Part shown: one piece after another, positions 7,172 through 29,722 of the stretch
Layout: each line of letters opens with the position of its first letter
Numbering within the stretch: position 1 is the stretch's first letter
Assembly (NCBI GenBank): GCA_044225175.1
Contig: JBGAJA010000002.1
Span: forward strand, 408,991-472,990
Direction of reading: 5' to 3'
DNA length: 64,000 bases
Source of the DNA: Candidatus Omnitrophota bacterium
GTDB taxonomy: Bacteria > Omnitrophota > Gorgyraeia > Zapsychrales > Fredricksoniimonadaceae
Notes under the pieces: model-generated
The model's input: the letters and a program-made list of their open reading frames with translations, nothing else
Told to the model about the DNA's origin: nothing
The model's database searches: none
Translations under genes and position numbers: made by a program

Positions 7172-7184
7172 AACCTGCCCCTAC
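7122..7184. repeat. REP-like palindrome, family A, overlapping the RAYT 3' end and stop codon.
   Basis: The sequence is gtagaggtgggttccaaacccaccttttatgcgtaatagggcaggtttagaacctgcccctac. Confidence 0.85.
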
Positions 7185-12173: not shown

Positions 12174-13804
12174 TGAGAGTATGTTAGCGGAGAAATATCT
12201 TTTGCTTGCTGCAGATATTCTTGAGACTTCTTAGAGTCGCCTAATTCTTTGGAGATATTGCTTAGTATAAAATATGTTTTATGAGACAAAGGAGATAGAC
12301 GGGCAGCTTCAAGAAAATCTTGCTCGGCTTGTTTGAGGAAGGAAGTATCTTTGGCTATGAAATACTTTCTGATGTTGAGAGATCCCAAGGCAGAAGGATA
12401 GCGAAACTCTGTTGGGTCTAATAATCTGGCCTTTTCAAAATAAACTTCTGATTGCGTTATCTTTCCTGAACTAAAGAAAACCATCCCTTTATTGTAATCT
12501 AAGAGAGCTAAAGAAATTCGTGTGCCTAATATTAATAGGCTAATGATGAGAATGGCTAAGAATCCAAAGATCCATTGGTCTCGTTTTGTTGATTTTAGTG
12601 ATTCTTGGTTTATTTTATAAGAGTTAATGAATGCCCCAAAGCCTGCTAATACAATCCAAAAGAATAAACTCACGTTTGGTCTAAGTAGGGTAAAGTTGCT
12701 TAAATTGTCGATAAAAAAGAAGCTTAATGACCAAATAAAGGCAATCAGTACTATTCTGCGACTATATTCGTTTTCTTTTCTTAAGGCGAACAAGCTCTCT
12801 TTGATAAATAATCCAACCATACACAGGCCAGCTAGAAATCCCAACACGCCTGTTTCTATCCACAGTTGTAAATAGCTGTTGTGCACATAGGCGCTGTATC
12901 CAAAAAGATAGGTGATGTATTTTTTACTGACTAAACTAAAAGTATCGAGCCCGCTTCCAATCCATGGATGATCTTTGAGGACTAAAAACGTACATCTAAG
13001 GTAGTCCCATCGGGCCCCTAGTGAGAAATCTTTTCGAAGAAGAAGGATGAGAATACAAAAGGCAAGGGTTGCGACGATAATGCCAAAGAAATATTTCCTA
13101 TTCTCTGGTTTATTCGACCATTGTTTAAAGATTAATGGAGTGAGAATGAGAGTTGTGATGATGAAATTGAGCGTACATAGGAACGCAAAGGTCAACAGAA
13201 ACAAACCTAAGCAAACACATAAAAGTAAGATGAATGCTCTTTTTTTCCACTGATTTTTCGTTAGCGTAATCGTGGCCCACAGAAAGGGGGTTAAAAGCAT
13301 TAAGAACCCAGCTAAAACATTAGGAAGCTGAAATATAGATCCGACCCGTTTGACTGATCCACTCACGGGATCTTTAAGAAAGAAATACTCCCAGAATCCA
13401 AAGAGGATAACCAAAACAAGACTTATCTGCATATAGCTCCACACATCTAAGATTTGTTTTGAATCTTTTAGAGTGGCAGCCAATATATAAAATAAAGCAA
13501 TATAAGAAATGGTAACAATAAAGAAATTAACAGAAGCCGATGCATCCACGCTTGAGCTTAAGGATAAACACAATGCTCCCACCAAAAGATAAATGGATAG
13601 ATCAAAAGGAGTGCGTGGAAACTTAGCTTGTGCTCGGATTTGATTAAAGATCCAGATTAAAGAAAGAACGAATATAGAACCTGCAATAACCAGGTCTGAG
13701 AGGCGTTCTTTAGTGTAAACGTAGTTATCTGGAAAAAGGTGCACAATGATGAGTCGTAATAAAACAATGGCGCCGCATGCACGAATAAAAAAGGTATAAT
13801 TCAT
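12170..13804 (-). CDS. O-antigen ligase (Wzy_C) family membrane protein with a C-terminal TPR region.
   Basis: Multi-TM protein with a YVHNSYLQLWIETGVLG ligase motif and C-terminal TPR-like repeats. Confidence 0.55.
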   Translation of the reverse strand: MNYTFFIRACGAIVLLRLIIVHLFPDNYVYTKERLSDLVIAGSIFVLSLIWIFNQIRAQAKFPRTPFDLSIYLLVGALCLSLSSSVDASASVNFFIVTISYIALFYILAATLKDSKQILDVWSYMQISLVLVILFGFWEYFFLKDPVSGSVKRVGSIFQLPNVLAGFLMLLTPFLWATITLTKNQWKKRAFILLLCVCLGLFLLTFAFLCTLNFIITTLILTPLIFKQWSNKPENRKYFFGIIVATLAFCILILLLRKDFSLGARWDYLRCTFLVLKDHPWIGSGLDTFSLVSKKYITYLFGYSAYVHNSYLQLWIETGVLGFLAGLCMVGLFIKESLFALRKENEYSRRIVLIAFIWSLSFFFIDNLSNFTLLRPNVSLFFWIVLAGFGAFINSYKINQESLKSTKRDQWIFGFLAILIISLLILGTRISLALLDYNKGMVFFSSGKITQSEVYFEKARLLDPTEFRYPSALGSLNIRKYFIAKDTSFLKQAEQDFLEAARLSPLSHKTYFILSNISKELGDSKKSQEYLQQAKDISPLTYSH

Positions 13805-14453: not shown

Positions 14454-14535
14454 GTGTCATTGCGAGCGAACGCAGTGAGTGTGGCAATCTCTCACGATCA
14501 AGATTGCTTCGTCGCTTCGCTCCTCGCAATGACAC
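14454..14535. repeat. Family B nested palindrome between hsp20 and clpB.
   Basis: The sequence is gtgtcattgcgagcgaacgcagtgagtgtggcaatctctcacgatcaagattgcttcgtcgcttcgctcctcgcaatgacac. Confidence 0.8.
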
Positions 14536-14553: not shown

Positions 14554-16677
14554 ATGCAAATGGAACAACAACCCAAACCACTAGAAGCATACGGCAAGGA
14601 TTTAACTGATTTAGCCAGCAAGGGGAAGCTTGATCCTGTTATTGGACGGGATGAAGAGATTCGTCGTGTCATTCAAGTGCTGTCACGTAGGACTAAGAAT
14701 AATCCTGTGCTTATTGGTGAGCCAGGGGTTGGAAAAACAGCCATTGTTGAAGGTTTAGCACAAAGAATATTTCTAGGTGACGTTCCTGAAGGCTTAAAGC
14801 ATAAGAAAGTGATTGTTTTAGACATGGGAGCCTTAGTGGCTGGTGCAAAATTCAGAGGAGAATTTGAGGAACGTTTAAAAGCAGTTTTGAAGGAGGTTGA
14901 AAGTAGTGATGGATCCATTATTTTATTCATTGATGAGTTACATACAATTGTTGGAGCAGGACGAGCGGAGGGAAGTGCAGATGCCGCCAATTTACTTAAA
15001 CCTGCTTTAAGTCGTGGCATGTTGCGCTGCGTGGGTGCTACCACATTAGATGAGTATCGCCAATATATTGAGAAAGATGCTGCTTTAGAGCGTCGTTTTC
15101 AACCTGTTATGGTGAATGAACCAACGGTTGAAGATACGATTGCTATTTTACGTGGTTTAAAAGAAAAATATGAAGTGCATCATGGGGTGCGTATTCAAGA
15201 TTCCGCTATCATCGCGGCCGCCACTATGAGCCAACGCTATATTACAGAACGTTTCCTTCCAGATAAGGCGATCGACCTGATTGATGAAGCAGCATCCAAG
15301 CTTCGTATTGAAATCGACAGCATGCCTCAAGAGCTAGATCAGAATGAAAGAGAAATTCGTCGACTTGAAATTGAGCGTCAGGCCCTTAAGAAAGAGTCTG
15401 ATGCTGCATCTAAAGAGAGAGTCAAAGGAATCGAAGATGAGCTTACGACTTTAAAAGAAGAAAATAAAAAGATGCGAGCCCAATGGCAAGCTGAGAAGGT
15501 CGTGATTGACCAAATCCGCAAAATTAAAACCGAAATCGAGTCTGCCAAATTAGAAGAAACAAAAGCTGAGAAGACAGGAGACCTCAATAAGGTAGCCCAG
15601 ATCCGCTATGGCGTTCTAGTTGATTTAGAAAAACAATTAGTAGCTAAGAACAAGGAGCTTGCCAAGCAACAAAAAGATGGAGGTATGCTAAAAGAAGAAG
15701 TTGACGATCAAGACATTGCTGAAATCATCTCCAAATGGACTAAGATTCCTCTTTCAAAGCTTATGCAGGGTGAAACAGAAAAACTAGTTTCCATGGAAGC
15801 TGAGCTTAAGAAAAGGGTTGTGGGTCAAGATAAGGCTATTGACGCTATTTCTGCCTGTATCCGTCGAAGCCGAACAGGTTTAAGTGATCCAAACAGACCC
15901 TTAGGTTCATTTATCTTTGTTGGGCCTACGGGGGTAGGAAAAACCGAACTTGCCAAGGCGCTTGCCGGCTTTTTGTTTGATGATGATAACTCTGTGATTC
16001 GTATTGATATGAGTGAATACATGGAGAAGCACAGCACATCTCGTTTGATTGGAGCGCCTCCAGGATATGTGGGTTATGATGAAGGCGGGCAATTGACAGA
16101 AGCTGTCCGTCGAAGACCATTCTCTGTTGTGCTCTTTGATGAAATCGAAAAGGCCCATTCAGATGTGTTCAATGTGCTTTTGCAGCTCTTGGATGATGGT
16201 CGCCTGACGGATTCCCAAGGAAGGGTTGTGAACTTCAAGAATACGATTGTGATCATGACATCTAACATCGGAACAGCCGAGCTTTCTGAGATGACCAATC
16301 AAAAAGAAATGGAAGACCATATTCAAAAAGCCCTACGTGCTCACTTCCGTCCAGAATTCTTAAATCGTGTGGATGAGATTGTAGTCTTCTCACGTTTAAA
16401 AGAAGAGCAGATCAAGAAAATTGTTGGTCTTCAGTTGGATATTTTGACAGAGCGTTTGAGTCAGCGAAAGATATCTTTGCATGTTTCTGATAAAGCAAAA
16501 GCTTTGCTTGCTCGTCAAGGATATGATCCTATTTATGGGGCTAGACCCTTAAAGAGAGCTATTCAAACCTTGGTGCAAGATCCAATTGCTTTGCGTCTTT
16601 TGCAAAATGAAGCTAAAGAAGGTGACACCATTGATGTGGATGCGCAAGGTGAAGATTTGGCAATTGAGGTTAAATAA
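14554..16677 (+). CDS. clpB: ClpB-type AAA+ disaggregase lacking the N-terminal domain.
   Basis: Two AAA+ modules (GEPGVGKT and GPTGVGKT), a coiled-coil middle domain, and a C-terminal ClpB signature. At 707 aa it is shorter than the usual roughly 860 aa. The family-B repeat directly upstream leaves no room for an N-domain. Confidence 0.9.
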
Positions 16678-16706
16678 TTATTAACTGTTCATCGGGAGGA
16701 GGACAT

Positions 16707-17336
16707 ATGAACACAATGACATTATCTAAACTCGTTCTAGCTTCAACATTAGCCTGCACTATGATTAGTGCGCCAGTTTATGCAGATGAAAATGAGGATT
16801 TGAGAAATCAAGTCAAGGCTCTGCAAGATAAGGTAAGTCAACTAGAACAGCAAGCTGCTATTCAAAGATCTCAAAGAGAACCATCTAGGACTGACTCCCA
16901 AACATCGAATGCAGATGTATATGATCCATGGGACCCATTTCAAGAAATGCGAATGATTGAGCGACAAATGAATCAACTCATGAAAGCAAACATGGTCGAT
17001 TTTAATCCTAGGGAAGATATCAAGCAGACTGCAGATCATTATATTGTCAGTATGGATATTCCAGGAATGGAGAAAGATAAGATCAATGTTGAAGTTAAAT
17101 CAGGGATGCTTATTGTTTCAGGTGAAAGAAAAAGTGAAGTTAAAGAACAGAAACCAAATCAGTTCTATCGCCAAGAACGTTCTTTTGGCCATTTTTTAAG
17201 AACAATGCCCTTACCATCTGATGCCAAGGCGGATCATATTGAAGCCAAATACACCAATGGTGTTCTGACGGTTACAGTTCCTCGTGAGAAGGCGTCCAAG
17301 GAAAAGAAAGTAGGACAAAAAGTAGTTGTGAAATAA
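16707..17336 (+). CDS. Secreted (signal-peptide) Hsp20-family protein.
   Basis: N-terminal signal peptide (LVLASTLACTMISAPVYA), an alpha-crystallin domain (ADHYIVSMDIPGMEKDKINVEV), and an RBS-like GGGAGGAGG upstream. Confidence 0.7.
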   Translation: MNTMTLSKLVLASTLACTMISAPVYADENEDLRNQVKALQDKVSQLEQQAAIQRSQREPSRTDSQTSNADVYDPWDPFQEMRMIERQMNQLMKANMVDFNPREDIKQTADHYIVSMDIPGMEKDKINVEVKSGMLIVSGERKSEVKEQKPNQFYRQERSFGHFLRTMPLPSDAKADHIEAKYTNGVLTVTVPREKASKEKKVGQKVVVK

Positions 17337-17348
17337 ATTGGAGGAGCT

Positions 17349-17870
17349 ATGAAATTAAAAGGCCAAAAGATTCTGATGTTTGTGGATGACATTTATGAAG
17401 ACATGGAACTTATGTATCCTAAGTATCGTTTGATTGAAGAAGGAGCTCAAGTGGTGGTAGCGGGTCCCAAAGCGGGACAGATTTATAAAGGGAAACATGG
17501 TTATCCTTGCAAAAGCGATGAGGCAATTGCAAATATTCAGTCTAAAGATTTCATAGCTCTAGTCATACCAGGGGGTTTTGCACCTGATCAATTAAGACGG
17601 GATCCAAAAGTATTAAGTCTCACAAAGGAATTCCATCAGGCTGGAAAACTGGTAGCTCATATTTGTCATGCCGGATGGATTCCAATCTCAGCTGGAGTAG
17701 TTAAGGGTATTAAATGCACATCCACTCCTGGGATTAAAGACGATCTAGTCAACGCTGGAGCCACATGGGTAGATGAGACTGTTGTGGTTGATAAGAACCA
17801 TATTACAAGCCGTAAACCAGATGATTTGCCTATTTTTTGTAAATCGATTATAGACTTCCTTTCTAGATAA
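17349..17870 (+). CDS. DJ-1/PfpI-family protein (protease/deglycase-like).
   Basis: PfpI-like fold sequence with a nucleophile elbow, AHICHAGW. Confidence 0.8.
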   Translation: MKLKGQKILMFVDDIYEDMELMYPKYRLIEEGAQVVVAGPKAGQIYKGKHGYPCKSDEAIANIQSKDFIALVIPGGFAPDQLRRDPKVLSLTKEFHQAGKLVAHICHAGWIPISAGVVKGIKCTSTPGIKDDLVNAGATWVDETVVVDKNHITSRKPDDLPIFCKSIIDFLSR

Positions 17871-17938
17871 CGGTTTTTTTTCAATATAGCCTCACAGGAC
17901 TTGATTTTTCATGTTTATATGGTTTACTTTATATAAAT

Positions 17939-20900
17939 ATGAGAAAACAAACCACAATGACCTACATCAGCCGAAGGCTGATCAGCCTCTGGCTGACAGC
18001 TGCTTTTATAGTTGGCCCTTTGCCCAGGGCTCAGGCGCAAGATTTTACCTTACCTAAGCCTGGTGTCATGGTGCATCTAAGCCCTGAATTTACACCTGCT
18101 CATTTACAGGGCATGACCATTCATCCTGGTAATGCCTTACAATTCGATTTCTTAATTCACAAAGGCGATAAGAATTTACAAGCAGATCAGAAGAAAGAAG
18201 AATATAAGAAACTGATCAAGTATTTCCTCGCTTCTTTGACCATTCCTGATGAAGATCAATGGGTGAACCTTTCTCCCTATGAGAAGGATCGGATCATTAA
18301 GGATGATTTTGGTAAGACTGAGATGGGCCGAGATCTTTTAGCTCAGGATTATCTATTAAAACAAATTACCTCTAGCCTCATTTATCCCGAAGATAGTTTA
18401 GGACAGAAGTTCTGGGACAAGATCTATGAACGTGCCTGGAAGGAATATCATACGACCAATATCCCAGTGAATACGTTTAATAAGGTCTGGATTGTTCCGG
18501 ATGAAGCGATTGTGTATGAGAGTGGCAATAGCGCTTACATTCTCAAAAGTCATTTGAAGGTCATGCTAGAGGAAGATTATTTGTCATTAGAAAAGCATTC
18601 TGGTGTCATGGCGAACCACAAAGGGGTGAAGCAATTTTTTAAATCTGAAAAGATTGCCCCGTCGCCTTCGGCTCCTCGCAATGACACAAGTTCTCTTGGT
18701 TCGCAGGTAGTCCGCGAAATTGTACTTCCTGCTCTTGAGAAGGAAGTTAATGAAGGGGAGAATTTTTCTAATCTTCGTCAAATGTACAGCGGGATGGTTC
18801 TGGCGACATGGTACAAGAAAGCCCTTAAAGAATCTTTACTGGGAAAGTTTTATACTGATAAAGCCAAGGTCAAAGGAGTTAATCAGGATCCACAAAATAA
18901 TCAAGCCATTTACCAACAGTATCTCAAAGCTTTCAAGAAGGGCTGTTTTAATTATATCAAAGAAGATGTAGACAAATACACCAAGGAATCGGTTCCTAGA
19001 AAATATTTCTCCGGCGGTTTTCACCGCCCTATGTTCAGAAATGGATCCGAAGTAACCTTTATCCCTGCAGGGAAGTTGAATAGAACCTTAGCGATGGCAG
19101 CTATAGTTTCATCGCAAGAATCTCTAGAGCAGGCCACTGTTGCGTTTAATGCAGCAGGAGAGATAAGGAACAGTGCTCAATCGGCAGGCGATCAGGCGAT
19201 GATGGAAAATCCTCCGAAAGACTCCAATGCGGGAAGAGAAACATTAACCTTAGAAGCTTTGGAGAGAATTATGAGCTCCTATATCCAATCGAATGAAAAA
19301 TCGATCTATGGGTTTATTCAAACTTTGATACATAGCGTAGGAGGGGAAGCAAACATAACTGCGGATCCTAAAGGAATCGAACAAGGCGCTACAATTAGCT
19401 TTGCTTTTAGTTTTCGCAGAAATATTGAGTTATCAGGCAAAACATATAGTGCCCTTGAAGTGTCAACATTTATCCTAACCGAACTTGAAAGAAAGCTTAA
19501 TGAAGAATATGGCCGCAACTATAAAGTTGAAAGCCATATCATAGACAACCACGAGAGAGAATTGCATGATGACAGGAATTTTCAACTTGTGGTTGATATC
19601 GATAGAAGAACATTTGAAAAGGCGAAAATGCGCTATAAACAATTAATGTCCTTTTCGGATATTCTTAGTCGAATTGATGAAATACCCAGAACAGCACGCC
19701 CTAATATTTTATTTATGGTGCCTAGAGACGGCAACAGCCCAATTTATTTGATGCTTCAAAATACCGGACGATACATATTCTTTGACCATGTCACTGCCTT
19801 TAGTGTATTTAATGAAGAGCTTTATTATTCTTATTTGGATCCACAGGAACAAGGCAATGTAATTTTTGTTTGTTTGAATGCAAAAGGTGTTATTAGGCAA
19901 TTAAGACCAAATGAGGTCCCAAAGAGCCTCAGAGAAGAATTTGGTATACAAGAATCTGATTTGATGGATTTAAATGGTAATTATAAGGCCAGTTTTATTA
20001 TTGGCGGGTTCAATGATAATAATGTAATTGATTCCTTAACTCAGCTAAAAGGCGTCAAAATGGAAGATGTTGAGAATAAGATGAAAGAAACTTCACAAAC
20101 AGATGCAAAATCGATTAAGGATTTATTAAAAGATCAAAACACAAAGGTAACAAAGAGAGGATTTACACATCAAGAAATAGCTGAAGCGCTTTTTATAGCT
20201 ATGCAAAATATACCTGGAAAATATTTTAAAATTGCCAACTATGATTTCTTAATTGAAAAATCAACAAGTGATTCAAATAAAGATCCTGTATTCATAAACC
20301 CCAACAATTTTCTATCGCCAGACGCACGAAAAGTCCAATATACGCTAAGGAACATCTCATTGGATAGATCAATTACATTTTTTGCATCAACTGCTTACGA
20401 TATTGCGAATTTTGGTTTTTACGGGGACCTTGATCCATTAAATATGATCGAAGTATTAGGATTAAAACCTGTGGGAAGAGATACTGGCTCTTCTGAGGAT
20501 CAGCCAAATATTATCGATGGTAAAGCTCGAATCAATCCTGATGCAAGGATGCCAGATATTAAGAAAAAGATGCGAGCAAGTAACGAAGAGTTAGAGCGAT
20601 ATCATGCTGGGATTACAGCGGCATTAACGGCCGTAGTGAAGATTAATTTAGGCAAAGATGATATAGGAGAGACAAAAATTATTAATTTTGGATCAACATC
20701 AAGAGATACGCACATCGATAATTTTTCTAATGAAGGTTTAGATATTGATTATCTTATTCAATTTAGTACTGAAGATGAGTTGAAGCTGTTTAGACGAAAC
20801 CTGAAAACATTCGGTTTTTCTGCTGCAAAGGTTATTTTTCAAGATAAAGGTTTTGAATTTGCGCAGGGACAGAGAGGTTTGACTCCTGAAGGTCAATATT

Positions 20901-21661
20901 TACAGTCGTTTTATGTTAGAGAAAAGGGTCAAAAGATATGGATTCTATTGCATGTAAAATTTGCAGTAACGAAAAAAGATTTAATTTATATAGATTGGTT
21001 TGACCGGCAAATGACTCAAATTGAAAATTTAGGAGAAAGCCGTGAACAAATTGCCAGAGAAATTCGTAAGATGAAAAGCGTTATTCAAGATATGCGAAAG
21101 GGAAAAACTTATAAGCGTCGTGCTATTTCTATTGCCTTTGAGCAATTGGTTATTCAATCAGCGGGTGCTTCAGATTATGGGCGCACAATATTAGGAGTTG
21201 GAAGTTTTCAAAAGGCCATCGATCGAGTTTATGAGGCAGGTTATGATAAGCTAAATAAACGTGTAATCCCTCTTCAAGAAGTTCAAGATACTTTTCAAAT
21301 TTTTGATCCGGAGAAGAGAACTAATTATATAGCTACTTTTACAGTTCAGGAATGGAATGATTTAGTCAATTTAGTTATAAAAATTAAAGAAACACCAGAT
21401 TTTCTTAAGGAGATTATCGTAGGCAACCCAGGGAACTTGACAGATTCAAACAAAGCGATGACAGCAAAAGGTGGTGTTGACTTTAACTCTGCGAATTTGA
21501 ATTTACAAATCAAGCGTGATGGCCGTGGGGTGCCGCTGCCTTTAGCCCAGCAGGATATGGCCCAACTAAACGCCATTGAAGGTTTTGAAGTTAATATCTT
21601 GGAAATTAAACCTGCTGTTAATGTTTCCATCATTTCTGAATTAAAAACCATTGCAAAATAA
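17939..21661 (+). CDS. Large secreted modular protein, paralog 1 (1240 aa). It has a conserved N-terminal domain, a putative pol-beta-like nucleotidyltransferase motif in the middle region, and a conserved C-terminal domain.
   Basis: Signal peptide. The N-terminal roughly 330 aa and C-terminal roughly 90 aa are homologous to the 26711 and 63512 ORFs (KLIKYFLASLTIP..WVNLSPYEKDRI). A GS..(15)..DID motif lies near 20690-20749. Confidence 0.6.
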   Translation: MRKQTTMTYISRRLISLWLTAAFIVGPLPRAQAQDFTLPKPGVMVHLSPEFTPAHLQGMTIHPGNALQFDFLIHKGDKNLQADQKKEEYKKLIKYFLASLTIPDEDQWVNLSPYEKDRIIKDDFGKTEMGRDLLAQDYLLKQITSSLIYPEDSLGQKFWDKIYERAWKEYHTTNIPVNTFNKVWIVPDEAIVYESGNSAYILKSHLKVMLEEDYLSLEKHSGVMANHKGVKQFFKSEKIAPSPSAPRNDTSSLGSQVVREIVLPALEKEVNEGENFSNLRQMYSGMVLATWYKKALKESLLGKFYTDKAKVKGVNQDPQNNQAIYQQYLKAFKKGCFNYIKEDVDKYTKESVPRKYFSGGFHRPMFRNGSEVTFIPAGKLNRTLAMAAIVSSQESLEQATVAFNAAGEIRNSAQSAGDQAMMENPPKDSNAGRETLTLEALERIMSSYIQSNEKSIYGFIQTLIHSVGGEANITADPKGIEQGATISFAFSFRRNIELSGKTYSALEVSTFILTELERKLNEEYGRNYKVESHIIDNHERELHDDRNFQLVVDIDRRTFEKAKMRYKQLMSFSDILSRIDEIPRTARPNILFMVPRDGNSPIYLMLQNTGRYIFFDHVTAFSVFNEELYYSYLDPQEQGNVIFVCLNAKGVIRQLRPNEVPKSLREEFGIQESDLMDLNGNYKASFIIGGFNDNNVIDSLTQLKGVKMEDVENKMKETSQTDAKSIKDLLKDQNTKVTKRGFTHQEIAEALFIAMQNIPGKYFKIANYDFLIEKSTSDSNKDPVFINPNNFLSPDARKVQYTLRNISLDRSITFFASTAYDIANFGFYGDLDPLNMIEVLGLKPVGRDTGSSEDQPNIIDGKARINPDARMPDIKKKMRASNEELERYHAGITAALTAVVKINLGKDDIGETKIINFGSTSRDTHIDNFSNEGLDIDYLIQFSTEDELKLFRRNLKTFGFSAAKVIFQDKGFEFAQGQRGLTPEGQYLQSFYVREKGQKIWILLHVKFAVTKKDLIYIDWFDRQMTQIENLGESREQIAREIRKMKSVIQDMRKGKTYKRRAISIAFEQLVIQSAGASDYGRTILGVGSFQKAIDRVYEAGYDKLNKRVIPLQEVQDTFQIFDPEKRTNYIATFTVQEWNDLVNLVIKIKETPDFLKEIIVGNPGNLTDSNKAMTAKGGVDFNSANLNLQIKRDGRGVPLPLAQQDMAQLNAIEGFEVNILEIKPAVNVSIISELKTIAK
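18603..18687. repeat. Degenerate family B palindrome, in frame inside the paralog-1 gene.
   Basis: The sequence is gtgtcatggcgaacc...gaagattgccccgtcgccttcggctcctcgcaatgacac. It translates as SGVMANHKGVKQFFKSEKIAPSPSAPRNDTSS and lies exactly in a segment that is hypervariable between paralogs. Confidence 0.7.
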
Positions 21662-21695
21662 GAGAGTATGAAACACTTAGAGGTCAAATGTGGTC

Positions 21696-21723
21696 TTGAC
21701 AAAGAAATAGCTCATGCTATACT
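21696..21723 (+). promoter_or_regulatory. Sigma70-type promoter: TTGACA, 16-nt spacer, TGcTATACT.
   Basis: Consensus -35 and an extended -10, upstream of hrcA. Confidence 0.55.
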
Positions 21724-21724
21724 T

Positions 21725-21751
21725 CTAGCAGTCAAACATTGAGAGTGCTAA
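21725..21751 (+). promoter_or_regulatory. CIRCE (HrcA operator) CTAGCAGTC-N9-GAGTGCTAA.
   Basis: Perfect right arm and a 9-nt spacer. It lies between the promoter and hrcA. Confidence 0.65.
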
Positions 21752-21812
21752 TCCTGCTGCGCTCCAAAACTTCCGTTTGGGAGCTTCGCAGAGATGAGTC
21801 TCAGGAAAACAT

Positions 21813-22547
21813 ATGGCAGCTAAACATTTAGATATCAAACAACGTAAAGATCGAATCCTGGCTATTGTCGTTGGGCAATATATCAAGACAATTACGCCGG
21901 TTGGGTCTCATTTTTTGACTGCTGAATACAATTTAGATGTTTCTCCCGCCACTGTCAGGAACATCTTGGCAGAGTTAGAAGAACAAGGTTATTTGACACA
22001 TCCTCACACATCCGCGGGCCGCATTCCGACCCAGCGCGGTTATCGGTACTATGTAGATCACTTAATGAATGAAATTCAGCTTTTGGAAGAAGAAAAGCGG
22101 CGAATTCAGTCAGAACACAAGCAATATACTAATCAGTTAGAAGCTTTAATGGAAAAAACGTCTGAAACCCTTTCAGACTTAACACATTGCACCAGTATCA
22201 TTTCAATTGATGGCTGGGGAAGTAAAATTATTTTAAAAGGGACGAGCCATGTGGTTGGCTATCCTGAACAAGTAGATGTTTTGAAGATTCAGGCGATCTT
22301 GAGGATTCTTGAAGAGAAGGAACGTTTATTATCTTTGATTAATCGTGATTTGGAACACAAAACGGAGATCTTTATCGGCCATGAAATGGCCTTGAAAGAA
22401 ATGGAAAGCTGTTCTTTAGCTGTCTCAAGCTTTGAACAAGAGGGTGTCACAGGACGCATTGCAGTTTTGGGACCAACTCGTATGGACTATGACCGCGTAG
22501 TTTCTGCTCTTGAGTATATCTCCGATTTGTTAAGTCATAGAAAATAG
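21813..22547 (+). CDS. hrcA: Heat-inducible transcription repressor HrcA.
   Basis: N-terminal winged HTH and HrcA-like sequence. It lies upstream of grpE-dnaK. Confidence 0.9.
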   Translation: MAAKHLDIKQRKDRILAIVVGQYIKTITPVGSHFLTAEYNLDVSPATVRNILAELEEQGYLTHPHTSAGRIPTQRGYRYYVDHLMNEIQLLEEEKRRIQSEHKQYTNQLEALMEKTSETLSDLTHCTSIISIDGWGSKIILKGTSHVVGYPEQVDVLKIQAILRILEEKERLLSLINRDLEHKTEIFIGHEMALKEMESCSLAVSSFEQEGVTGRIAVLGPTRMDYDRVVSALEYISDLLSHRK

Positions 22548-22565
22548 AAAAGGACACAATAAGGT

Positions 22566-23105
22566 ATGGACGAAAAAGTTCAACAACCTCAAGAAGAAAT
22601 TTTGTCACAAGAACAACATCCTCAAGAGCCCAGCGCTTCACAAGCTAGTGAAGTAGATGTGTTAAAGAATTTGTTGAGTATTGAGAAAGATAAATATGTT
22701 CGTCTCTTAGCTGAATTCGACAATATGAGAAAACGTCATGAGCGCGATCGCATGGAATTGATTAAATATGCTCATGAGGAAGTTATTATTGAATGTTTAA
22801 AGCTTTATGATAATCTTGAACGCTCTTTGAACGCTTTTAAGGCAAAAGAAGGAACTGATCCAAACTTGGTCAAAGGTCTTGAAATGGTTTTTAATACGAT
22901 GAAAGAACTGATGACTAAATATGAGGTTAAACCAATAGAAGCTGTTGGTAAACCTTTTGATCCAAACACACAAGAAGTGTTGATGCAGCAAGAAACAACG
23001 GATTTTCCCGACGGTGTTGTCATGGAAGAATTTGAAAAAGGATATACCCTAGGTGGTAAGGTTGTGCGGACCCCTAAAGTTAAAGTAGCGAAGAACAATA
23101 CGTAG
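22566..23105 (+). CDS. grpE: Nucleotide exchange factor GrpE.
   Basis: GrpE coiled-coil and C-terminal beta domain, in the conserved operon position. Confidence 0.9.
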   Translation: MDEKVQQPQEEILSQEQHPQEPSASQASEVDVLKNLLSIEKDKYVRLLAEFDNMRKRHERDRMELIKYAHEEVIIECLKLYDNLERSLNAFKAKEGTDPNLVKGLEMVFNTMKELMTKYEVKPIEAVGKPFDPNTQEVLMQQETTDFPDGVVMEEFEKGYTLGGKVVRTPKVKVAKNNT

Positions 23106-23163
23106 AGACGTAGCAGTGCTGCGTCTGTACAGGAAATATTAATCAAGAATCAAGGAGGAATAT

Positions 23164-25092
23164 ATGGGTAAAGTCATTGGAATCGATTTAGGTACATCAA
23201 ATTCAGCTGCAGCTGTGATGGAAGGCGGCAGACCAGTCATCATCCCTTCAGCAGAAGGGGCTGGGGTTGCATCGGGTAAGGCATTTCCATCATTTGTTGC
23301 CTTCACCAAAGACGGGCAATTACTCGTCGGAGAACCTGCACGTCGTCAGGCTCCTATCAATTCAGAAGGAACCATTTATGCTTCCAAGCGTAAAATGGGT
23401 ACAGATTTTAAATTTAAAGTGTTCGGTAAGGAATACACTCCTCAACAAGTCGGATCATTTATCTTACAAAAAATCAAAGCAGATGCTGAGAAGTTTTTAG
23501 GCGAAACAGTTGATGGCGTTGTCATCACCGTTCCTGCTTACTTCAATGATAATCAGCGTCAAGCCACAAAAGATGCTGGTGAAATCGCTGGCTTAAAAGT
23601 TCTTCGTATTATCAACGAACCAACCGCTGCTTGCTTGGCTTATGGTTTGGATAAAGTCGGCAAAGAACAAAAGGTCATGGTTTTCGATCTTGGCGGTGGA
23701 ACATTGGATGTCACCATCCTTGAAATGGGCTGGGATGAAGCAGCTAAAGCAGCTACATTTGAAGTATTATCGACGAGTGGTGACAATCAACTAGGCGGTA
23801 CTGATATGGATAACGCTTTGATTGATCATATCGTTAACGAATTCAAAAAAGAAAGCGGTATTGATTTGCGTAACGATAAAATGTCATTCCAACGTTTACG
23901 CGAAGCTGCTGAAAAAGCTAAGGTGGAGTTATCTAGCACTGTTTCCACTGAAGTGAATCTACCTTATATTACGGCTGATGCCACAGGGCCAAAGCATTTA
24001 AATATGAAGATCGATCGTGCCAAATTAGAAAGTTTGATTGGGCCAATCGTTGATCGTTGTAAAGGGCCTGTTCGTCAAGCCATTAAAGATGCTTCTTCCA
24101 AATTAGGCGAAGAGGTGAAGGTTGACCGCATTGTCTTAGTCGGCGGTCCAACACGTATGCCAGTTGTTCAACAATTCTTGGAAAAAGAAGTTGGACAAAA
24201 AATCGAAGGTGGTATTGATCCAATGGAATGCGTGGCCTTAGGAGCTGCAATCCAGGGCGCTATCATCACTGGAGATGCTAAAGAAGTTCTTTTACTCGAC
24301 GTGACACCACTCTCTTTAGGGATTGAAACCATGGGTGGAGTTTTTACCAAGATGATTGAACGAAACACCACAATCCCAACTAAAAAAGCAATGCCATTCT
24401 CAACGGCTGAAGATAATCAGCCTGCGGTGACAATCCGTGTCCTGCAAGGTGAACGTCAAATGGCTAATGACAATACAGAGCTTGGAAGATTTGATTTAGT
24501 AGGGATTCCTCCAGCTCCTCGAGGCGTTCCTAAGATCGAAGTCACATTCGACATTGATGCCAACGGTATTGTTCACGTGACGGCTAAGGACACAGCAACC
24601 AACAAAGAACAAAAAATTCAAATCACAGCAAAGACCAAGTTGTCCGACGACGAAATTCAGAAAATGGTCAAAGAAGCAGAGAAATTTGCTGAAGAAGATA
24701 AAAAACGCCGTGAAGAAGCTGAGCTTCTTAATCAAGCCAATACATTGCTTTATTCTACAGAAAAGTCATTGAAAGATTATGGTGATAAAGTTTCTGCTGA
24801 TGATAAAGCTAATATCGAGAAAGAATTGGCTGCTTTAAAAGAAGCTATCGAAAAGAAAGATCAAGAAAAAATCAAATCATCTATGGAATCATTGCAAAAG
24901 GTCAGCCACAAGCTAGCTGAAGAAATGTACAAGGCTACAGCTGCCCAGCAACAAGGTGCTCCTGGAGCAGATGCAGGAGCTCAGCCTAATGATGCGGGTC
25001 CTTCACAAGATCAAGGTGGCGCATCAGATGAAGGTTCTAAACCAAAGGATGATGTAATCGACGCTGATTTTAAGGCGACGGATAAAAAATAA
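23164..25092 (+). CDS. dnaK: Chaperone DnaK (Hsp70).
   Basis: Highly conserved Hsp70 sequence with GIDLGTSNS and DLGGGTLD motifs. Confidence 0.97.
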
Positions 25093-25114
25093 TAAAATGA
25101 ATGCGGAATTTATC

Positions 25115-25173
25115 GTAGGGGCGGCCCCCTGTGGCCGCCCTTAATAAGGGCCGGCACAGGGGCCTGCCCCTAC
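25115..25173. repeat. REP-like palindrome, family A variant, in the dnaK-dnaJ intergenic region.
   Basis: The sequence is gtaggggcggccccctgtggccgcccttaataagggccggcacaggggcctgcccctac. Confidence 0.8.
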
Positions 25174-25183
25174 AAAAATTATT

Positions 25184-26302
25184 ATGAAAAAAGATTATTA
25201 CGAAATATTAGGCGTCGCCAAAACTGCAACTTTAGCTGAAGTTAAAAAAGCTTATCGATCACTGGCCCTCAAATATCATCCAGACCGTGTTGCAGAGGCT
25301 GAGAAAAAAGATGCTGAGGCAAAGTTTAAAGAAATCTCTGAGGCCTATGGTGTCCTTTCAGATCCACAGAAAAGACAAACTTACGATCAATACGGCCATC
25401 AAGGAATTGATCAGACATATACGTCAGAAGATATTTTTAAAGGCGCTGATTTTTCAAGCATTTTTGAAGGAGCTGGTCTTGGAGATATTTTAGGTCAAAT
25501 GTTTGGAGGTAGTTTTGAAGGCGGTGGTCGTTCAAGTCGACGCGCGCGCGGTCGCGATATTCAATATGAAGTAGAGCTTACTCTGGAAGATGCTTATAAA
25601 GGCGTTCACAAAGAAATCAAAGTTCCTCGTCATGAATATTGCAAGCAATGCGATGGGACAGGGGCTAAGAATGGCACTGCTTTAAAGACTTGCCCAACAT
25701 GTCATGGTCAAGGACAAGTTGTGATGTCATCGGGTTTTTTCCGTATGGCTCAAACATGCGGGCAATGTCAAGGTCGTGGTAAGACAATCACAGAAAGCTG
25801 TCTTGAATGTTCAGGCCAAGGTGTTAAACGGGTCGTTAGAAATATTGACGTCACAATTCCAGCTGGTGTTGACAATGATTCTCAGCTTCGTGTGCGTGGA
25901 GAAGGTGAAATAGGCCAAGGTGGAAGTGGGGACTTGTATTTATTTATCAAAGTCAGAGACCACCAGGTCTATCGACGAGATGGGGATGATTTATATATGG
26001 ATGTCCCAGTGAGTTTTGTGAAGGCGACATTGGGTGGAGATGTGCTTGTTAAGACATTAAAAGAATCCGTTGAGATGAAGATCCCAAGCGGTACTCAAGG
26101 TGGAAAGATGTTTAGGCTCAAAGGCCAAGGAATGCCTTCTGTTCATGGGCATGACCATGGAGATTTATATGCAAGAGTTATGATTGAAATACCCACAAAC
26201 CTAAATACACGCCAGAGAGAAATTCTGGAAGAATTCGCCAAAGAATCTGGGGAATCCGTCAAAGGTTCATTAAAAGATCGATTCAAGAAAGCATTTAAAT
26301 AA
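25184..26302 (+). CDS. dnaJ: Chaperone DnaJ.
   Basis: J-domain HPD motif (YHPDR), Gly-rich linker, and four CxxCxGxG zinc-finger repeats. Confidence 0.95.
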   Translation: MKKDYYEILGVAKTATLAEVKKAYRSLALKYHPDRVAEAEKKDAEAKFKEISEAYGVLSDPQKRQTYDQYGHQGIDQTYTSEDIFKGADFSSIFEGAGLGDILGQMFGGSFEGGGRSSRRARGRDIQYEVELTLEDAYKGVHKEIKVPRHEYCKQCDGTGAKNGTALKTCPTCHGQGQVVMSSGFFRMAQTCGQCQGRGKTITESCLECSGQGVKRVVRNIDVTIPAGVDNDSQLRVRGEGEIGQGGSGDLYLFIKVRDHQVYRRDGDDLYMDVPVSFVKATLGGDVLVKTLKESVEMKIPSGTQGGKMFRLKGQGMPSVHGHDHGDLYARVMIEIPTNLNTRQREILEEFAKESGESVKGSLKDRFKKAFK

Positions 26303-26303
26303 T

Positions 26304-26585
26304 ATGCCAACATATCAATACCAATGCGAAGCCTGTGGTCATGAATTTGAAGAACTTCAATCCATGACTGATAAGAAATTAACGAAATGTCCTAAGTGTA
26401 AAAAGCCTAAGCTAGTTCGTTTAATCGGAAGCGGCGCCGGCATGATTTTCAAAGGCAGCGGCTTTTATGAAACCGATTATAAGAAAAAATCACCATCTTC
26501 TGATTCAAAGCCTGCATCAAAACCCTCTTCGCCTGCTTCAAGCACTGGTAGTTGCGGAGGCGGGTGTGCCTGCCATCCTGCATAG
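26304..26585 (+). CDS. FmdB-family zinc-ribbon protein.
   Basis: N-terminal YQYQCEACGHEFE...CPKCK zinc ribbon and an S/P-rich tail. Confidence 0.6.
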   Translation: MPTYQYQCEACGHEFEELQSMTDKKLTKCPKCKKPKLVRLIGSGAGMIFKGSGFYETDYKKKSPSSDSKPASKPSSPASSTGSCGGGCACHPA

Positions 26586-26642
26586 TTAAGGGATTAATAG
26601 CCAATTTAGATTATAACTCATTTCATATCAATGGGTTATAAG

Positions 26643-26671
26643 TTGGACAACTTTTCTTTATATGCTATCTT
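26643..26671 (+). promoter_or_regulatory. Sigma70-type promoter: TTGGAC(A), about 17-nt spacer, TGcTATCTT.
   Basis: Shares the ATATGCTATCTT -10 region with the hsp20 promoter. No CIRCE follows it. Confidence 0.45.
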
Positions 26672-26710
26672 TTCTTTAAATCTTATCTAGTCCTATTTAA
26701 GAGGTGAATT

Positions 26711-29700
26711 TTGTTTCAACGCGGGACATCATTAGGTGTACTTCTAGCTTTCTGTCTATCCTTGATTGCTCCTTATCAAACGGTTTGGGCTAAAGATGCG
26801 GGATTGATTTTGCCGAAACCCGGGGCAATGGTTAATTTAAGCCCTGCTTTTGAGCCTGTGATGATGAAGGGATTGAAGGTTGATCCGAAGAATCCGTTTC
26901 GGTTTGAATTCATTTTGGATCCAGGTGACGTAGGGGTGGGTTCTAAAACCATCCCTACGGATTTGAAAATCGAATCCACCAAATTAATCAAATATTTCCT
27001 CGCCTCTTTAACCATCCCCGAAAAAGACCTTTGGGTCAATTTATCTCCTTATGAAAAAGATCGAATGATTCCTTCCACCTTGGCCCAGACTGAGATGGGA
27101 CGTGATATGTTGTCCCAGGATTACATCCTCAAACAGCTAACAGCCTCTTTGATCTATCCTGAGAAAGAACTGGGAAAGGCGTTCTGGGATAAGGTCTATT
27201 CCAAAGCTCAAGCAATCTACGGAAGCACCCAGATTCCAGTGAACACCTTTAACAAGGTTTGGATTGTCGCAGACAAGGCAGATGTATTTGAGAGGGGAAA
27301 TGTAGCGTATGTGGTGGGGGCACATTTGAAGGTGATGCTAGAAGAAGACTATTTAGCGAATTCGAAAAATCAATTGCCAGCCAGGGGACATGTTCCGGAC
27401 AAAACCAACAGGAACGTGTCCCCCAGCACTTTGCCAAGCCATGTCGGGTTGGAAATGAAAGCAACCCAGGGACAATCACCAAACGTATTAGGAAACCAAA
27501 TCATCCGCGAAATTGTCCTTCCTGCTCTCGAACAAGAAATCAACACCGGCAAGCATTTCGCCCTCTTACGCCAGATGTTTTATTCCATGATCCTAGCCAG
27601 TTGGTACAAAATGGCGCTCAAGGATGCACTCATTTCTAAAATTTACGGCAATCAAAGTAAGGTCAAGGTGGGCATTAACCAGAAAGATATTAAAACCAAC
27701 GACGAAATCTTCAATCAATACCTGAAAGCTTACAAGAAGGGAGTGTTTAATTACATCAAGGAAGACATTTCCGCCATAGGCGGAACCGCCTCTGGCGGAG
27801 ATCACACTCGTCAACAACGTATCCCTAGGAAATATTTTTCAGGTGGAGAGCACGTTTGGCAATACCTAGATCATGCTCGGGTGGTCCATATGATCCCTAG
27901 AGGAACAAGTTTTGCAAATCAAGCCATGATTGCAGTGGTGGATATGACGCCTAAATCTAAAAATTCCGCCATGGCTTCAAAATTGACCCCTAATCAAATC
28001 ATCAATTTATTTAATCAAAAGTTTCCAGATAAGCATAAGCAGATTGCAGGGCTTCCTATTGCTGATGTTCAAAGCATAATAAATCCTACTACACAAAGAG
28101 CGTTTTATAGGGACTTTAAGAATAGAACAGAAAGAGATGGGATAGTGTTTAGCCGTTCCGCGACTAATCCTGTTTTTCTTAACAACTATATTAATCATAT
28201 TATGAAATTTGTTAAACCAGGTCAGAAAATTCTGTGTGTGGGAGAAGGCAGGGGCCATGTGGCTGCGGAATTAAAGAAAAGAGGGATAGATGTTTATGCC
28301 ATTGATCTGAGTGAGGAAAATACTGTTATTTCAAAAAGAAAAGGTGTTAACCAAATGGTTGGAGATGCCAGGGATTTACTTAAGCTGTACGGTCCAGAAA
28401 ATTTTGATATTGTGCTTTTTAGCGAATCCATAGGAGCAATGCCTATGGAGGACGTTTTAAAACAGGCCCATCTTGTGTTAAAACAAGGCGGAAATCTTCT
28501 GATCGGCGCTTATCCATCAACAGAAGAACGGGTGAAGATATCTCATCGGAGTAAATTCGTATATTATTCCACCCTTGAAATTAATGAAGCCCTCACTAAA
28601 GCTAAGTTTTCACATTTTCATCATGAACCCGTTTATGAAAATCCTGTCAATTTCTTTGATCTAGATGAAATGCCTGCAACATATCTTAATTTATTCGTAG
28701 CAACTAAACCACAAACAATGGATCTGCAATCCAGACAGGATCGTGCGATGGGAGTTCTTCAAGAAGATATTTCAAGGGAATTCTTATTGCTTCAAAGAAA
28801 AGTTCAGGAGTTACTTCAATATATTTTAATTGATGAAAATTGGGCAACATCACAACCAGTTACCTCAGAAATTTTTGAGGGGTTAGATTTAGATGCAAAC
28901 AGTCTTTTGAATGATTTAAGGACAAATGGTTATCTGAATGCAGCTAATGTCATGACAACAAAGCTTCAGGATCTTGAGTTTTCTTCCTTAATGCAATTTA
29001 CAAACCCCGTTTTTTCAGCCAAGAAATATGAGATTCACCAGAGAATTAAGAAGTTAAGACCGCTTATGGACTTTCGCGATATCACCCATCATGCTTTAAC
29101 AGGCCTTCTTTATTTTATGCTGATTTTAAGTACGGAAGACCTTCAAATCCTAGAAAAATTCAAAACAGACGAATTGGATGATATTGCGCATCTTTTATCG
29201 GGTTTGGGGGCTTCTTTAGGAAACCTTAATCAATATGAGATTCCAGGTGAATTAAGTACCAAGGATTTTATGTTTGCAACTCAATTGGGTAGGGTCGTGG
29301 GGGGGGTGCAACGAGCTTTGAAGGATCGAGTCTTTTTAGAAGAACATCAACAAGCAATCGCAGAAGTTGTCCAAAGGATTGAATTGATAAGCGAGCAAAC
29401 TAATCAAATCATTAAGCAAATCAGAGACCAGGCCATGAGTAATACCCCAGTTGATTCCACCAAACGTACAACACCAGGAGGTATTGACTTTGATCGCTCT
29501 AAAATGCAAATGAATGTGTCTAAAGAAGGCCAGGGAGTTCAAATGGATGCTCCAGCCAGAGGCAGGTCCGCCTTTGGCGGAGATCAAGCTATGATCGAAC
29601 GCATTCAGCGGGAGGGTTTTGATGGTTTAGAGTTTACTATTCGATCTCTTGAACCAGTGAAAGATTTGGAGTTGTTTTTGGGACTAAAAGAAAAGCCCCT

Positions 29701-29722
29701 AAGTCTTGCCGTTGCAAAATAA
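26711..29722 (+). CDS. Large secreted modular protein, paralog 2 (1003 aa), with a class I SAM-dependent methyltransferase module.
   Basis: Signal peptide. The N- and C-terminal domains are shared with paralog 1. A KILCVGEGRGHVAAE...IDLSE...GDARDL..FDIVLF Rossmann methyltransferase motif lies near 28226-28450. Confidence 0.6.
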   Translation: MFQRGTSLGVLLAFCLSLIAPYQTVWAKDAGLILPKPGAMVNLSPAFEPVMMKGLKVDPKNPFRFEFILDPGDVGVGSKTIPTDLKIESTKLIKYFLASLTIPEKDLWVNLSPYEKDRMIPSTLAQTEMGRDMLSQDYILKQLTASLIYPEKELGKAFWDKVYSKAQAIYGSTQIPVNTFNKVWIVADKADVFERGNVAYVVGAHLKVMLEEDYLANSKNQLPARGHVPDKTNRNVSPSTLPSHVGLEMKATQGQSPNVLGNQIIREIVLPALEQEINTGKHFALLRQMFYSMILASWYKMALKDALISKIYGNQSKVKVGINQKDIKTNDEIFNQYLKAYKKGVFNYIKEDISAIGGTASGGDHTRQQRIPRKYFSGGEHVWQYLDHARVVHMIPRGTSFANQAMIAVVDMTPKSKNSAMASKLTPNQIINLFNQKFPDKHKQIAGLPIADVQSIINPTTQRAFYRDFKNRTERDGIVFSRSATNPVFLNNYINHIMKFVKPGQKILCVGEGRGHVAAELKKRGIDVYAIDLSEENTVISKRKGVNQMVGDARDLLKLYGPENFDIVLFSESIGAMPMEDVLKQAHLVLKQGGNLLIGAYPSTEERVKISHRSKFVYYSTLEINEALTKAKFSHFHHEPVYENPVNFFDLDEMPATYLNLFVATKPQTMDLQSRQDRAMGVLQEDISREFLLLQRKVQELLQYILIDENWATSQPVTSEIFEGLDLDANSLLNDLRTNGYLNAANVMTTKLQDLEFSSLMQFTNPVFSAKKYEIHQRIKKLRPLMDFRDITHHALTGLLYFMLILSTEDLQILEKFKTDELDDIAHLLSGLGASLGNLNQYEIPGELSTKDFMFATQLGRVVGGVQRALKDRVFLEEHQQAIAEVVQRIELISEQTNQIIKQIRDQAMSNTPVDSTKRTTPGGIDFDRSKMQMNVSKEGQGVQMDAPARGRSAFGGDQAMIERIQREGFDGLEFTIRSLEPVKDLELFLGLKEKPLSLAVAK
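27384..27424. repeat. Hairpin GGGGACATGTTCC-(15)-GGAACGTGTCCCC, in frame at the hypervariable site of paralog 2.
   Basis: A 13-bp inverted repeat with one mismatch. It occupies the same variable segment where paralog 1 carries the family-B element. Confidence 0.55.
29555..29588. repeat. Family D palindrome copy (CCAGAGGCAGGTCCGCCTTTGG), in frame in paralog 2.
   Basis: About 32 of 34 nt identical to 6266-6299 in leuS. It translates as ARGRSAFGGDQ. Confidence 0.7.

Follow-up and report, generated by a model that had tools for sequence, protein, structure and literature searches.

The 64,000-nucleotide stretch of Candidatus Omnitrophota DNA analysed here (hereafter the window) encodes two complete paralogs of a secreted protein and the beginning of a third, and the second paralog carries a palindromic repeat that is translated in frame as part of the protein. 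Paralog 2 (26711-29722, + strand, 1003 residues) consists of a signal-peptide-like N-terminus, a conserved N-terminal domain (N-domain), a methyltransferase domain (residues 495-620), and a C-terminal GGIDF module. Paralog 1 (17939-21661, + strand, 1240 residues) has the N-domain and the C-terminal module in common with paralog 2. Paralog 3 starts at 63516 on the + strand, and the window ends (64000) at about its residue 162, before the position discussed here. Over 412 residues, the two complete paralogs share 49% sequence identity (E = 5e-112). Their alignment holds up to the motif ...KVMLEEDYL and resumes at (V/I)REIVLPALE. The segments between these anchors are unrelated, with lengths of 41 residues in paralog 1 (18584-18706) and 48 residues in paralog 2 (27356-27499), which bears out the sequence-only reading that the two proteins align on both sides of an unrelated segment. 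The variable segment is called site 2 in the following text; in paralog 2 it comprises residues 216-263 (+ strand), from KVMLEEDYL to IIREIVLP.

Site 2 of paralog 2 contains a hairpin (27384-27423, + strand) with arms GGGGACATGTTCC (27384-27396) and GGAACGTGTCCCC (27411-27423), which form 13 pairs around a 14-nucleotide loop (27397-27410). One of the pairs, where CATG is opposite CGTG, is T·G and corresponds to a U·G wobble in the sense RNA. The sequence-only reading had described the 13-bp stem correctly; the end that it gave, 27424, is one base too far. A repeat finder with a 9-nucleotide exact seed overlooked the hairpin because the wobble pair interrupts the seed. The sense RNA of a 61-nucleotide stretch containing the hairpin has a folding energy of -27.4 kcal/mol, compared with -15.2 ± 2.9 kcal/mol for 200 dinucleotide shuffles (z = -4.24), none of which folds as well. 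The identical hairpin sequence was found again in dozens of other genomes. Rfam 15 gave no match to the whole window at gathering thresholds and none to the region 27300-27560 at E ≤ 10. Both the hairpin and the hypervariable site that harbours it are confirmed as genuine.

The hairpin is the core of a repeat of about 110 bp, the GGGGACATG element, which is present once in the window and extends from about 27376 to 27485 on the + strand. The boundaries were determined from alignments of 14 and 69 copies; the smaller set was obtained from loci selected through their proteins and is unbiased, and the larger one originates from a pattern scan. The element in the window begins with GCCAGCCA and continues with the hairpin, the sequence AGCACTT-TGCCAAGC, and a tail, which contains the tail motif at 27456-27471 and ends with TGAAAGCAACCCAGGG-ACAATCACCAAACG. 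The complete unit encodes LPARGHVPDKTNRNVSPSTLPSHVGLEMKATQGQSPN. In the two alignments, the consensus of the 5' part is (A)ACGCCAACCA followed by GGGGACATGT(TC), a variable interior, and (GA)ACGTGTCCCC, and that of the 3' part is AAGCA(C/G)GT TGCCAAGC .. GTTGAATGTGAAAGCA(A/C)CCCAGGGAAAC.ACC.AACG.

The N-domain is about 380 residues long. The protein database contains more than 1,558 relatives of it, and the named ones all come from metagenome-assembled genomes (MAGs) of Candidatus Omnitrophota. A scan of species-representative genomes identified at least 590 N-domain loci, often several per MAG. The closest protein and locus matches to the family member from the window are at most 65% identical. 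The N-domain region of the relatives contains no Pfam domain, and the comparison of the N-domain model with the folds in the PDB gave no match. Proteins of the family have signal-peptide-like N-termini, as judged by eye from the sequences without a predictor. The build of the family is modular: the N-domain is followed by a strongly variable middle and a short C-terminal module starting with GGIDF or GGIDL, as seen in homologs P0012, P0018, P0023, P0038, P0063, P0104, and P0116. The middle is a methyltransferase in paralog 2, and homologs contain receiver, HEAT, and dehydrogenase domains in its place.

Among 86 aligned homologs, the gap at site 2 holds 0-43 extra residues with a standard deviation of 11.9, compared with at most 2.9 for the other gaps of the domain, which agrees with the earlier description of a hypervariable site within a conserved domain. 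The distance from anchor to anchor is 14-63 residues in 99 homologs and 14-59 residues in 63 genes from the protein-selected loci. AlphaFold2 (AF2) models of the N-domain were calculated from alignments of 14 sequences (predicted local distance difference test, pLDDT, of 65) and 86 sequences (pLDDT 76, predicted template modelling score 0.72). In both models, residues from about 220 to 255 are coil with pLDDT below 50, preceded by a β-hairpin/helix with pLDDT of 83-96 and followed by a helix with pLDDT of 88-95. Three further gap positions of the N-domain are also coil in the models. According to the predictions, site 2 is a disordered loop with well-modelled elements on either side. The suggestion of a surface loop, for which structure prediction had been proposed as the check, is supported by the models as far as the disordered coil is concerned.

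About a fifth of the homologs carry the GGGGACATG element at site 2, where the same DNA is translated in differing frames. In the three frames, the DNA encodes P(T/A)RGHV..NVSPSTLPS..GL.VKA.QG (the first frame, also given as PTRGHV..VSPSTLPS..GLNVKAPQG); QPGDM..VSPSTLPS.. or ..CPQAGCQA..; and ANQGTC..RVPKQ... Site 2 of paralog 1 is occupied by an element of another palindromic family, here called family B (18603-18687, + strand), which is in frame and encodes the peptide ..VMANHKGVKQFFKSEKIAPSPSAPRNDT. In the two sets of 99 and 63 homologs, at least eight palindromic families were recognised at site 2 by their typical peptides, and the claim that different copies contain different palindromes is therefore borne out. 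The other occupants include VIPAKAGIQ-type palindromes, VGAGSKPA..GLEPAPT encoded by doublets of GTAG-type repetitive extragenic palindromes (REPs), VILSAAKDL..SSATPQNDV, PPLVGG..LPTKGEG, FPPL..KEGVRG, GTVPW..KGQSPF with a 22-23-bp stem, ..PGFPTKAFGNDK, and others. Hairpins with stems of at least 10 bp occur 12 times in 5.6 kb of site-2 sequence from 59 genes (2.16 per kb) and once in 19.3 kb of their conserved core (0.05 per kb), which is an approximately 40-fold difference in density. Under a strict stem criterion (Watson-Crick pairs, at most one mismatch), the best stem was matched by at most 5% of shuffles in 16 of 35 long segments, of 28 residues or more, but in only two of 28 short ones. 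The idea that the segment might be a plain low-complexity linker thus holds for the short variants and fails for many of the long ones: long site-2 variants owe their length to palindromic repeats, and short ones are plain linkers. The site-2 segments of many homologs, including short ones, often end with (R/Q/K)ND(T/V/I)..(L/I)(G/A)SQ across repeat families. The 3' ends of several repeat families (..CGCAATGACAC, ..CAGAATGACG) correspond to this ending, which could be a shared remnant or an insertion microhomology.

An exact-pattern scan of metagenome contigs identified 66 copies of the GGGGACATG element. Forty-seven of these are located in N-domain genes, with 34 at site 2 after KVMLEEDYL, eight at site 1 after FDFILDxGD, and five at site 3 before IYQQYL. 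Another five lie inside proteins that are unrelated to the family, and the hosts confirmed by Pfam are a class II aldolase, in which the copy follows the domain, a 2-oxoacid dehydrogenase E2 acyltransferase, in which it lies in the linker between the lipoyl and E3-binding domains, and SMC. Two more are at the C-terminal ends of other open reading frames (ORFs), which brings the number of copies within ORFs to 54. The remaining 12 copies are extragenic and all are co-oriented with the upstream ORF; eight of them start between -1 and +6 nucleotides from its stop codon. All 66 copies, the 54 within ORFs as well as the 12 extragenic ones, have the sense orientation. Stop-codon content was considered as the cause of this orientation bias and rejected, since antisense frames are stop-free in 33-47 of the 69 copies. 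Among the protein-selected loci, two genes (L022 and L065) contain the complete element twice, at different loops. In the E2 acyltransferase (L093), the first inter-domain linker (..PLPSETTTEGESTPGKPTS..) resembles a decayed third-frame copy of the element, and in SMC (L092) a second, different palindromic-repeat peptide, DSRFRGNDS, directly follows the element.

A homolog search with a 38-43-residue peptide profile of the element gave two matches, and an exhaustive search of representative proteins was used instead. It identified 124 proteins at E ≤ 0.001 among 1.84 billion, of which 118 were new. The N-domain family accounts for 96 of the 118, and three of these proteins carry three copies. 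In the protein-selected loci (757 kb), a relaxed pattern matched 17 hairpins, which are copies of the element together with terminator-like hairpins that have the same stem. The intergenic hairpins at L018 (2893-2919), L055 (1032-1058), and L061 (5888-5909) share the outer stem GGGGACAYGT...ACRTGTCCCC and are flanked by A-runs and T-runs. They look like intrinsic terminators that act in both directions, and the hairpin of the element may be related to them or derived from them.

The 50-nucleotide tail of the element, which lies outside the search pattern, is 71% identical between copies, compared with 47% for the third codon positions of the adjoining core and 45% for shuffled tails. The tail identity is 0.713 for pairs of copies translated in the same frame and 0.692 for pairs in different frames, and its correlation with the divergence of the host genes is r = 0.01. 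The independence of tail identity from frame and host divergence indicates nucleotide-level constraint or spread, not vertical descent of a peptide. The element is conserved at the level of DNA or RNA rather than of the peptide. The 69 copies have 50 distinct stem interiors, and 66 of them form a single hairpin fold. The interior is either an A-rich loop of 14-17 nucleotides, as in the window, or an extra stem, which has a C-GAA-G cap in 17 copies. In the unbiased alignment of 14 copies, 92% of the cells are paired and seven of the 13 pairs are changed on both sides, with a pairing score that was reached by none of 500 shuffles and by no slid register. The stem in L030 is largely different yet fully compensated, and its single wobble is at another position. 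The CATG/CGTG wobble is kept in all copies apart from that one and the loop-3 copy in L065, which has two sense-strand wobbles.

Partial copies of the element consist of the hairpin only (L020, L097, L111, and L113) or of the tail only (L017 and L062), and short remnants such as TLPSEL and RNDTHS also occur. A direct repeat of 7-8 nucleotides, GCCAA(C/G)C, flanks the hairpin module in every copy, and the tail-only copies in L062 and L017 are joined exactly at this repeat. The flanks of site 2 in L143 and L118 are about 87% identical, but one of the genes contains the full element and the other an unrelated 25-residue segment. No convincing target motif or consistent target-site duplication was found in the outer flanks of the insertion sites, and the ends of the 110-bp unit are not terminal inverted repeats.

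Several other palindromic families are present in the window. Paralog 2 contains in-frame palindromes at four places, including the hairpin element. The loop at site 1 is occupied by a palindrome similar to family A with a GTAG tag, CGTAGGGGTGGGTTCTAAAACCATCCCTACG (26929-26959, + strand), which encodes VGVGSKTIPT. The fourth loop contains the tandem mini-palindromes TCCGCCATAGGCGGA and ACCGCCTCTGGCGGA of family C (27770-27799, + strand; tandem unit TCCGCCnnnGGCGGA), which encode SAIGGTASGG. A single family-C palindrome of the same unit is in the C-terminal module (29567-29581, + strand; peptide RSAFGGD). In paralog 1, tandem palindromes similar to family C are located in the signal-peptide region (17967-17996, + strand). 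The motif of family A is GTAG followed by GGGYGGGTT..AACCCRCCC, often in inverted doublets. One such REP doublet (4736-4791, + strand) is in frame in leucyl-tRNA synthetase (LeuRS; ORF 4025-6547) at the start of the editing-domain region, and a family-C tandem (6263-6292) is in frame in the anticodon-binding domain of the same enzyme. Intergenic copies of family B lie just after a UvrD-like helicase gene (10169-10257, + strand) and upstream of ClpB (14454-14535). A single GTAG-tagged REP, GTAGGGGTGGGTTCTAAACCCACCC (48748-48775), is inside ORF 48194-48925, apparently in frame. By our own count, five of the 13 family-A, -B, -C, and hairpin elements of the window are within about 2.75 kb of N-domain sequence, which represents 4.3% of the window (binomial probability about 1e-4). 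In the 757 kb of other Omnitrophota loci, families A, B, and C have 1-3 copies, compared with 17 of the GGGGACATG element and 30 of the VIPAKAGIQ type; families A-C may be the locally abundant ones in the genome of the window.

A REP-associated tyrosine transposase (RAYT) is encoded at 6620-7171 (+ strand) of the window, with the HUH motif NHIHGII and the catalytic-tyrosine region RNYYERVIR (Pfam Y1_Tnp, E = 2e-7). Its match to the NCBIfam model REP_Tyr_transpos (E = 1.2e-18) is split into two stretches and has a score of 67 bits, which is below the 80-bit cut-off. A GTAG-REP doublet (6864-6929) is translated in frame inside the RAYT, right after the HUH motif, and this insert probably accounts for the low score. 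A second doublet (7122-7184) spans the stop codon of the gene. The ORFs of the window from 4 kb onward are almost all on the + strand, with one exception (12170-13804). The genes of paralogs 1 and 2 are placed among those of a heat-shock cluster (14554-29722); the gene order is ClpB, Hsp20, DJ-1/PfpI, paralog 1, HrcA, an unannotated 179-residue ORF (22566-23105), DnaK, DnaJ, and paralog 2.

Based on these observations, an origin of the hypervariable site can be proposed. The GGGGACATG element is probably a selfish repeat, similar to the palindromic elements of Rickettsia or to intragenic REPs, which is retained in permissive loops. This interpretation draws on the dispersal of the element, its reading in several frames, its conservation at the nucleotide level, the compensatory upkeep of its stem, the predicted loop structure, and the fact that the window contains a RAYT with GTAG-REPs. 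In this view, the 40-nucleotide hairpin is the conserved core of a non-autonomous dispersed repeat of about 110 bp that is widespread in Omnitrophota. Its copies may land in many places, or travel by recombination, and would survive where they are harmless, which is the case just downstream of stop codons. Within genes, copies would survive if they are in frame, free of stop codons, and placed in a disordered loop or inter-domain linker, where they add an insert of 20-40 residues. Site 2 is probably the most permissive position in the proteins of a large secreted paralog family, and would gather many palindromic families and then lose or degrade them. Its hypervariable length and sequence would be the consequence of this turnover of repeats. 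The element is presumably mobile, perhaps by a strand-specific mechanism of the Y1/HUH type acting on hairpins in single-stranded DNA, and family A, at least, has a RAYT at its disposal. The copies are probably retained mainly by tolerance and not for a benefit, with the insertions being neutral.

Several observations weigh against the interpretation of the element as a tolerated selfish repeat. No transposase is linked to the element, and the RAYT of the window has no homolog in 1.3 Mb of fetched loci according to tblastn. The element does not have the GTAG/CGTC tag or terminal inverted repeats, and its outer flanks contain no clear target-site duplication. The single copy in the window may be an old inherited one rather than an active element. 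Furthermore, 71% of the copies detected at the DNA level are in one protein family, which is far above the expectation from random insertion, and the expansion of the paralogs may not explain all of this concentration. Since all genic and extragenic copies are sense-oriented even though antisense frames are often open, something more than the absence of stop codons filters or directs the insertion. Tolerance alone explains neither the one-family share nor the absolute orientation. The latter would also be produced by strand-specific transposition of single-stranded DNA in a genome with a strong gene-strand bias.

The sequence-only reading had interpreted site 2 as a preferred integration or recombination hotspot that diversifies a surface loop. 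In its full form, this explanation would have the repeats act as cassettes that are swapped at the site and thereby vary the exposed loop adaptively. We consider such a targeted hotspot unlikely. It would account for the restriction of the copies in the N-domain family, 47 of the 66, to only three loops, for the predominance of this family among the representative peptide-bearing proteins (96 of 118, some with three copies), and for the convergence of many unrelated repeat families on site 2. At site 2, the sequence AAA(A/C)ACCAA is frequent as the 5' flank, many segments end with (R/Q/K)ND(T/V/I)..LGSQ whatever family they hold, and the GCCAA(C/G)C repeats bracket the hairpin module, with the hairpin-less tails of L062 and L017 joined there. 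However, sites 1, 2, and 3 and the sites outside the family have no target motif in common, and preferred integration finds no backing in the flanks of the insertion sites. In unrelated proteins, too, the element is located in flexible linkers, a pattern that agrees with tolerance more than with targeting. In many homologs the site is just a short plain linker, and the counts are inflated by the duplication of paralogs. Much of the accumulation at site 2 is explained by the tolerance of a floppy loop and by inheritance through the expansion of the paralogs. A role of the encoded peptide (..VSPSTLPSELGLNVKAPQG..) as a functional linear motif, with the palindrome incidental to it, is very improbable and was rejected on the frame data: the motif recurs in more than 100 representative proteins, but the same DNA is translated in three frames into unrelated peptides, pairs of copies are equally similar in nucleotide sequence whether their frames agree or differ, and copies exist outside ORFs. 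That the hairpin arose by chance in a low-complexity linker is hardly credible. The short segment variants are indeed plain linkers without significant stems, but the shuffling result (z = -4.2), the recurrence of the identical stem in dozens of genomes, and the covariation of its arms led us to reject this explanation.

The hairpin could alternatively be kept for a cis-acting role in the sense transcript, possibly as a translational pause between sub-domains, a site for an RNase or RNA-binding protein, or a stabiliser of the 3' end after the stop codon. This explanation, which we regard as somewhat less likely than the hotspot, agrees with the co-orientation of 52 of 52 internal genic and 12 of 12 extragenic copies with transcription, and with the eight extragenic copies that start within -1 to +6 nucleotides of the upstream stop codon. 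A U·G wobble that forms a pair only on the sense strand is kept in the unbiased set, except in the L065 loop-3 and L030 copies, the stems are maintained by compensation, and the sense RNA folds better than the antisense RNA in 66 of 69 copies, although this is partly forced by the search pattern. A similar inference was made for REPs from their G·T pairs and position 3' of ORFs (PMC3733652). On the other hand, most homologs lack the element at site 2, truncated and remnant copies are common, unrelated palindromes take the same place, and Rfam contains no match. The orientation bias and the conserved mismatch are also expected from strand-specific transposition of single-stranded DNA under a strong gene-strand bias. 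More doubtful still is a functional coupling of the element to the N-domain family, in which a strand-specific hairpin would act as a loop cassette copied among paralogs and the three loops by hairpin-directed recombination or single-stranded-DNA transposition, and, as RNA, would at the same time provide the mRNA with a cis signal. If this were true, these ultra-small, possibly host-dependent bacteria would have in the loop cassette an inherent means of varying the exposed loops of their host-interaction proteins.

In-frame palindromic selfish repeats are usually seen as a curiosity of Rickettsia with few exceptions among REPs. The results presented here indicate that they pervade a candidate phylum that is known from metagenomes only, where they produce most of the length variation of a very large unannotated secreted family and are also located inside the housekeeping genes of LeuRS, SMC, and E2, and in a RAYT gene. 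For annotation, this means that peptides of the types PTRGHV..VSPSTLPS.., VGAGSKPA.., VIPAKAGIQ.., and ..IASSP.APRNDT are derived from repeats and are not domains. For studies of protein evolution, the insertions provide a large natural data set on positions that tolerate 20-40 additional residues. The total sense-strand bias together with the conserved wobble raises the testable question of whether the repeats act as single-stranded DNA or as RNA.

Among known systems, the GGGGACATG element can be compared with the Rickettsia palindromic elements (RPEs; Ogata et al. 2000, via PMC10969869), which insert in frame in many Rickettsia genes unusually often (PMC10969869, review). Both are dispersed repeats of about 100-150 bp with a palindromic core, and both have many in-frame copies translated as an extra peptide at fold-compatible insertion points as well as intergenic copies. 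The element belongs to the RPE-like functional class as a multi-copy palindromic repeat present in frame in unrelated genes, and its insertion points are loops or linkers as judged solely from structure prediction. The likeness described here is one of behaviour, and the hosts are Alphaproteobacteria in one case and Omnitrophota in the other. Whereas RPEs are scattered over unrelated metabolic genes, about 70% of the copies of the element are in one secreted family, at three fixed loops and all in sense orientation. A search of the literature for papers linking Omnitrophota with such repeats found none within the library searched.

GTAG/CGTC REPs, which occur inside genes including those of tRNA synthetases and are most abundant in Opitutus terrae and R. 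conorii (PMC3733652), are short imperfect palindromes with G·T pairs, as is the element. Most of them lie just 3' of co-oriented ORFs, and a minority in tRNA synthetase and repair genes add 20-30 residues, probably in linkers or loops; intragenic REPs are thought to sit in flexible linkers (Di Nocera et al. 2013, PMC3733652). Family A of the window fits the GTAG-REP class directly and has the characteristics of REPs and of the system formed by RAYTs and REPINs (REP doublets forming hairpins). The element differs from REPs in its conserved non-palindromic tail of about 60 nucleotides and in its lack of the GTAG/CGTC tags, which are on neither of its strands; the flanks on the + strand are CCA-GGGGACATG...CGTGTCCCC-AAG. 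The location typical of REPs, mostly extragenic near the 3' ends of genes, does not apply to the element, with 54 of 66 copies within ORFs, but its extragenic copies do conform to it. The REPIN-RAYT system (Bertels & Rainey 2011, PMC3116915) has its counterpart in the RAYT of the window, which has REP doublets inside its gene and next to it. Mobilisation of the REPIN-RAYT style, dependent on the hairpin and specific to one strand, would explain the imperfect stem and the orientation bias of the element. However, the RAYT is flanked by family A and not by the element, and the fetched loci (1.3 Mb) yielded no RAYT. REPINs have been described as extragenic elements (PMC3116915), whereas the doublets in the window are translated inside LeuRS and the RAYT.

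Miniature inverted-repeat transposable elements (PMC10969869) are likewise small, non-autonomous, present in multiple copies, and able to form in-frame fusions, but the element has no terminal inverted repeats, and its insertion sites display no consistent target-site duplication. Palindromic amphipathic repeat coding elements (PARCELs; 2010, PMC2996958) resemble the element in that a coding sequence with dyad symmetry varies membrane-targeted or surface proteins and apparently moves between genes. In PARCELs, an amphipathic motif of 25 residues is repeated in tandem, and the element does not form tandem arrays; the loops discussed here contain single insertions of unrelated families. With the GGGGACATG element, a new sequence family joins a known kind of element, the in-frame palindromic selfish repeats. 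What sets it apart is the accumulation of many repeat families at a single loop in a huge family of secreted paralogs, together with its total strand bias.

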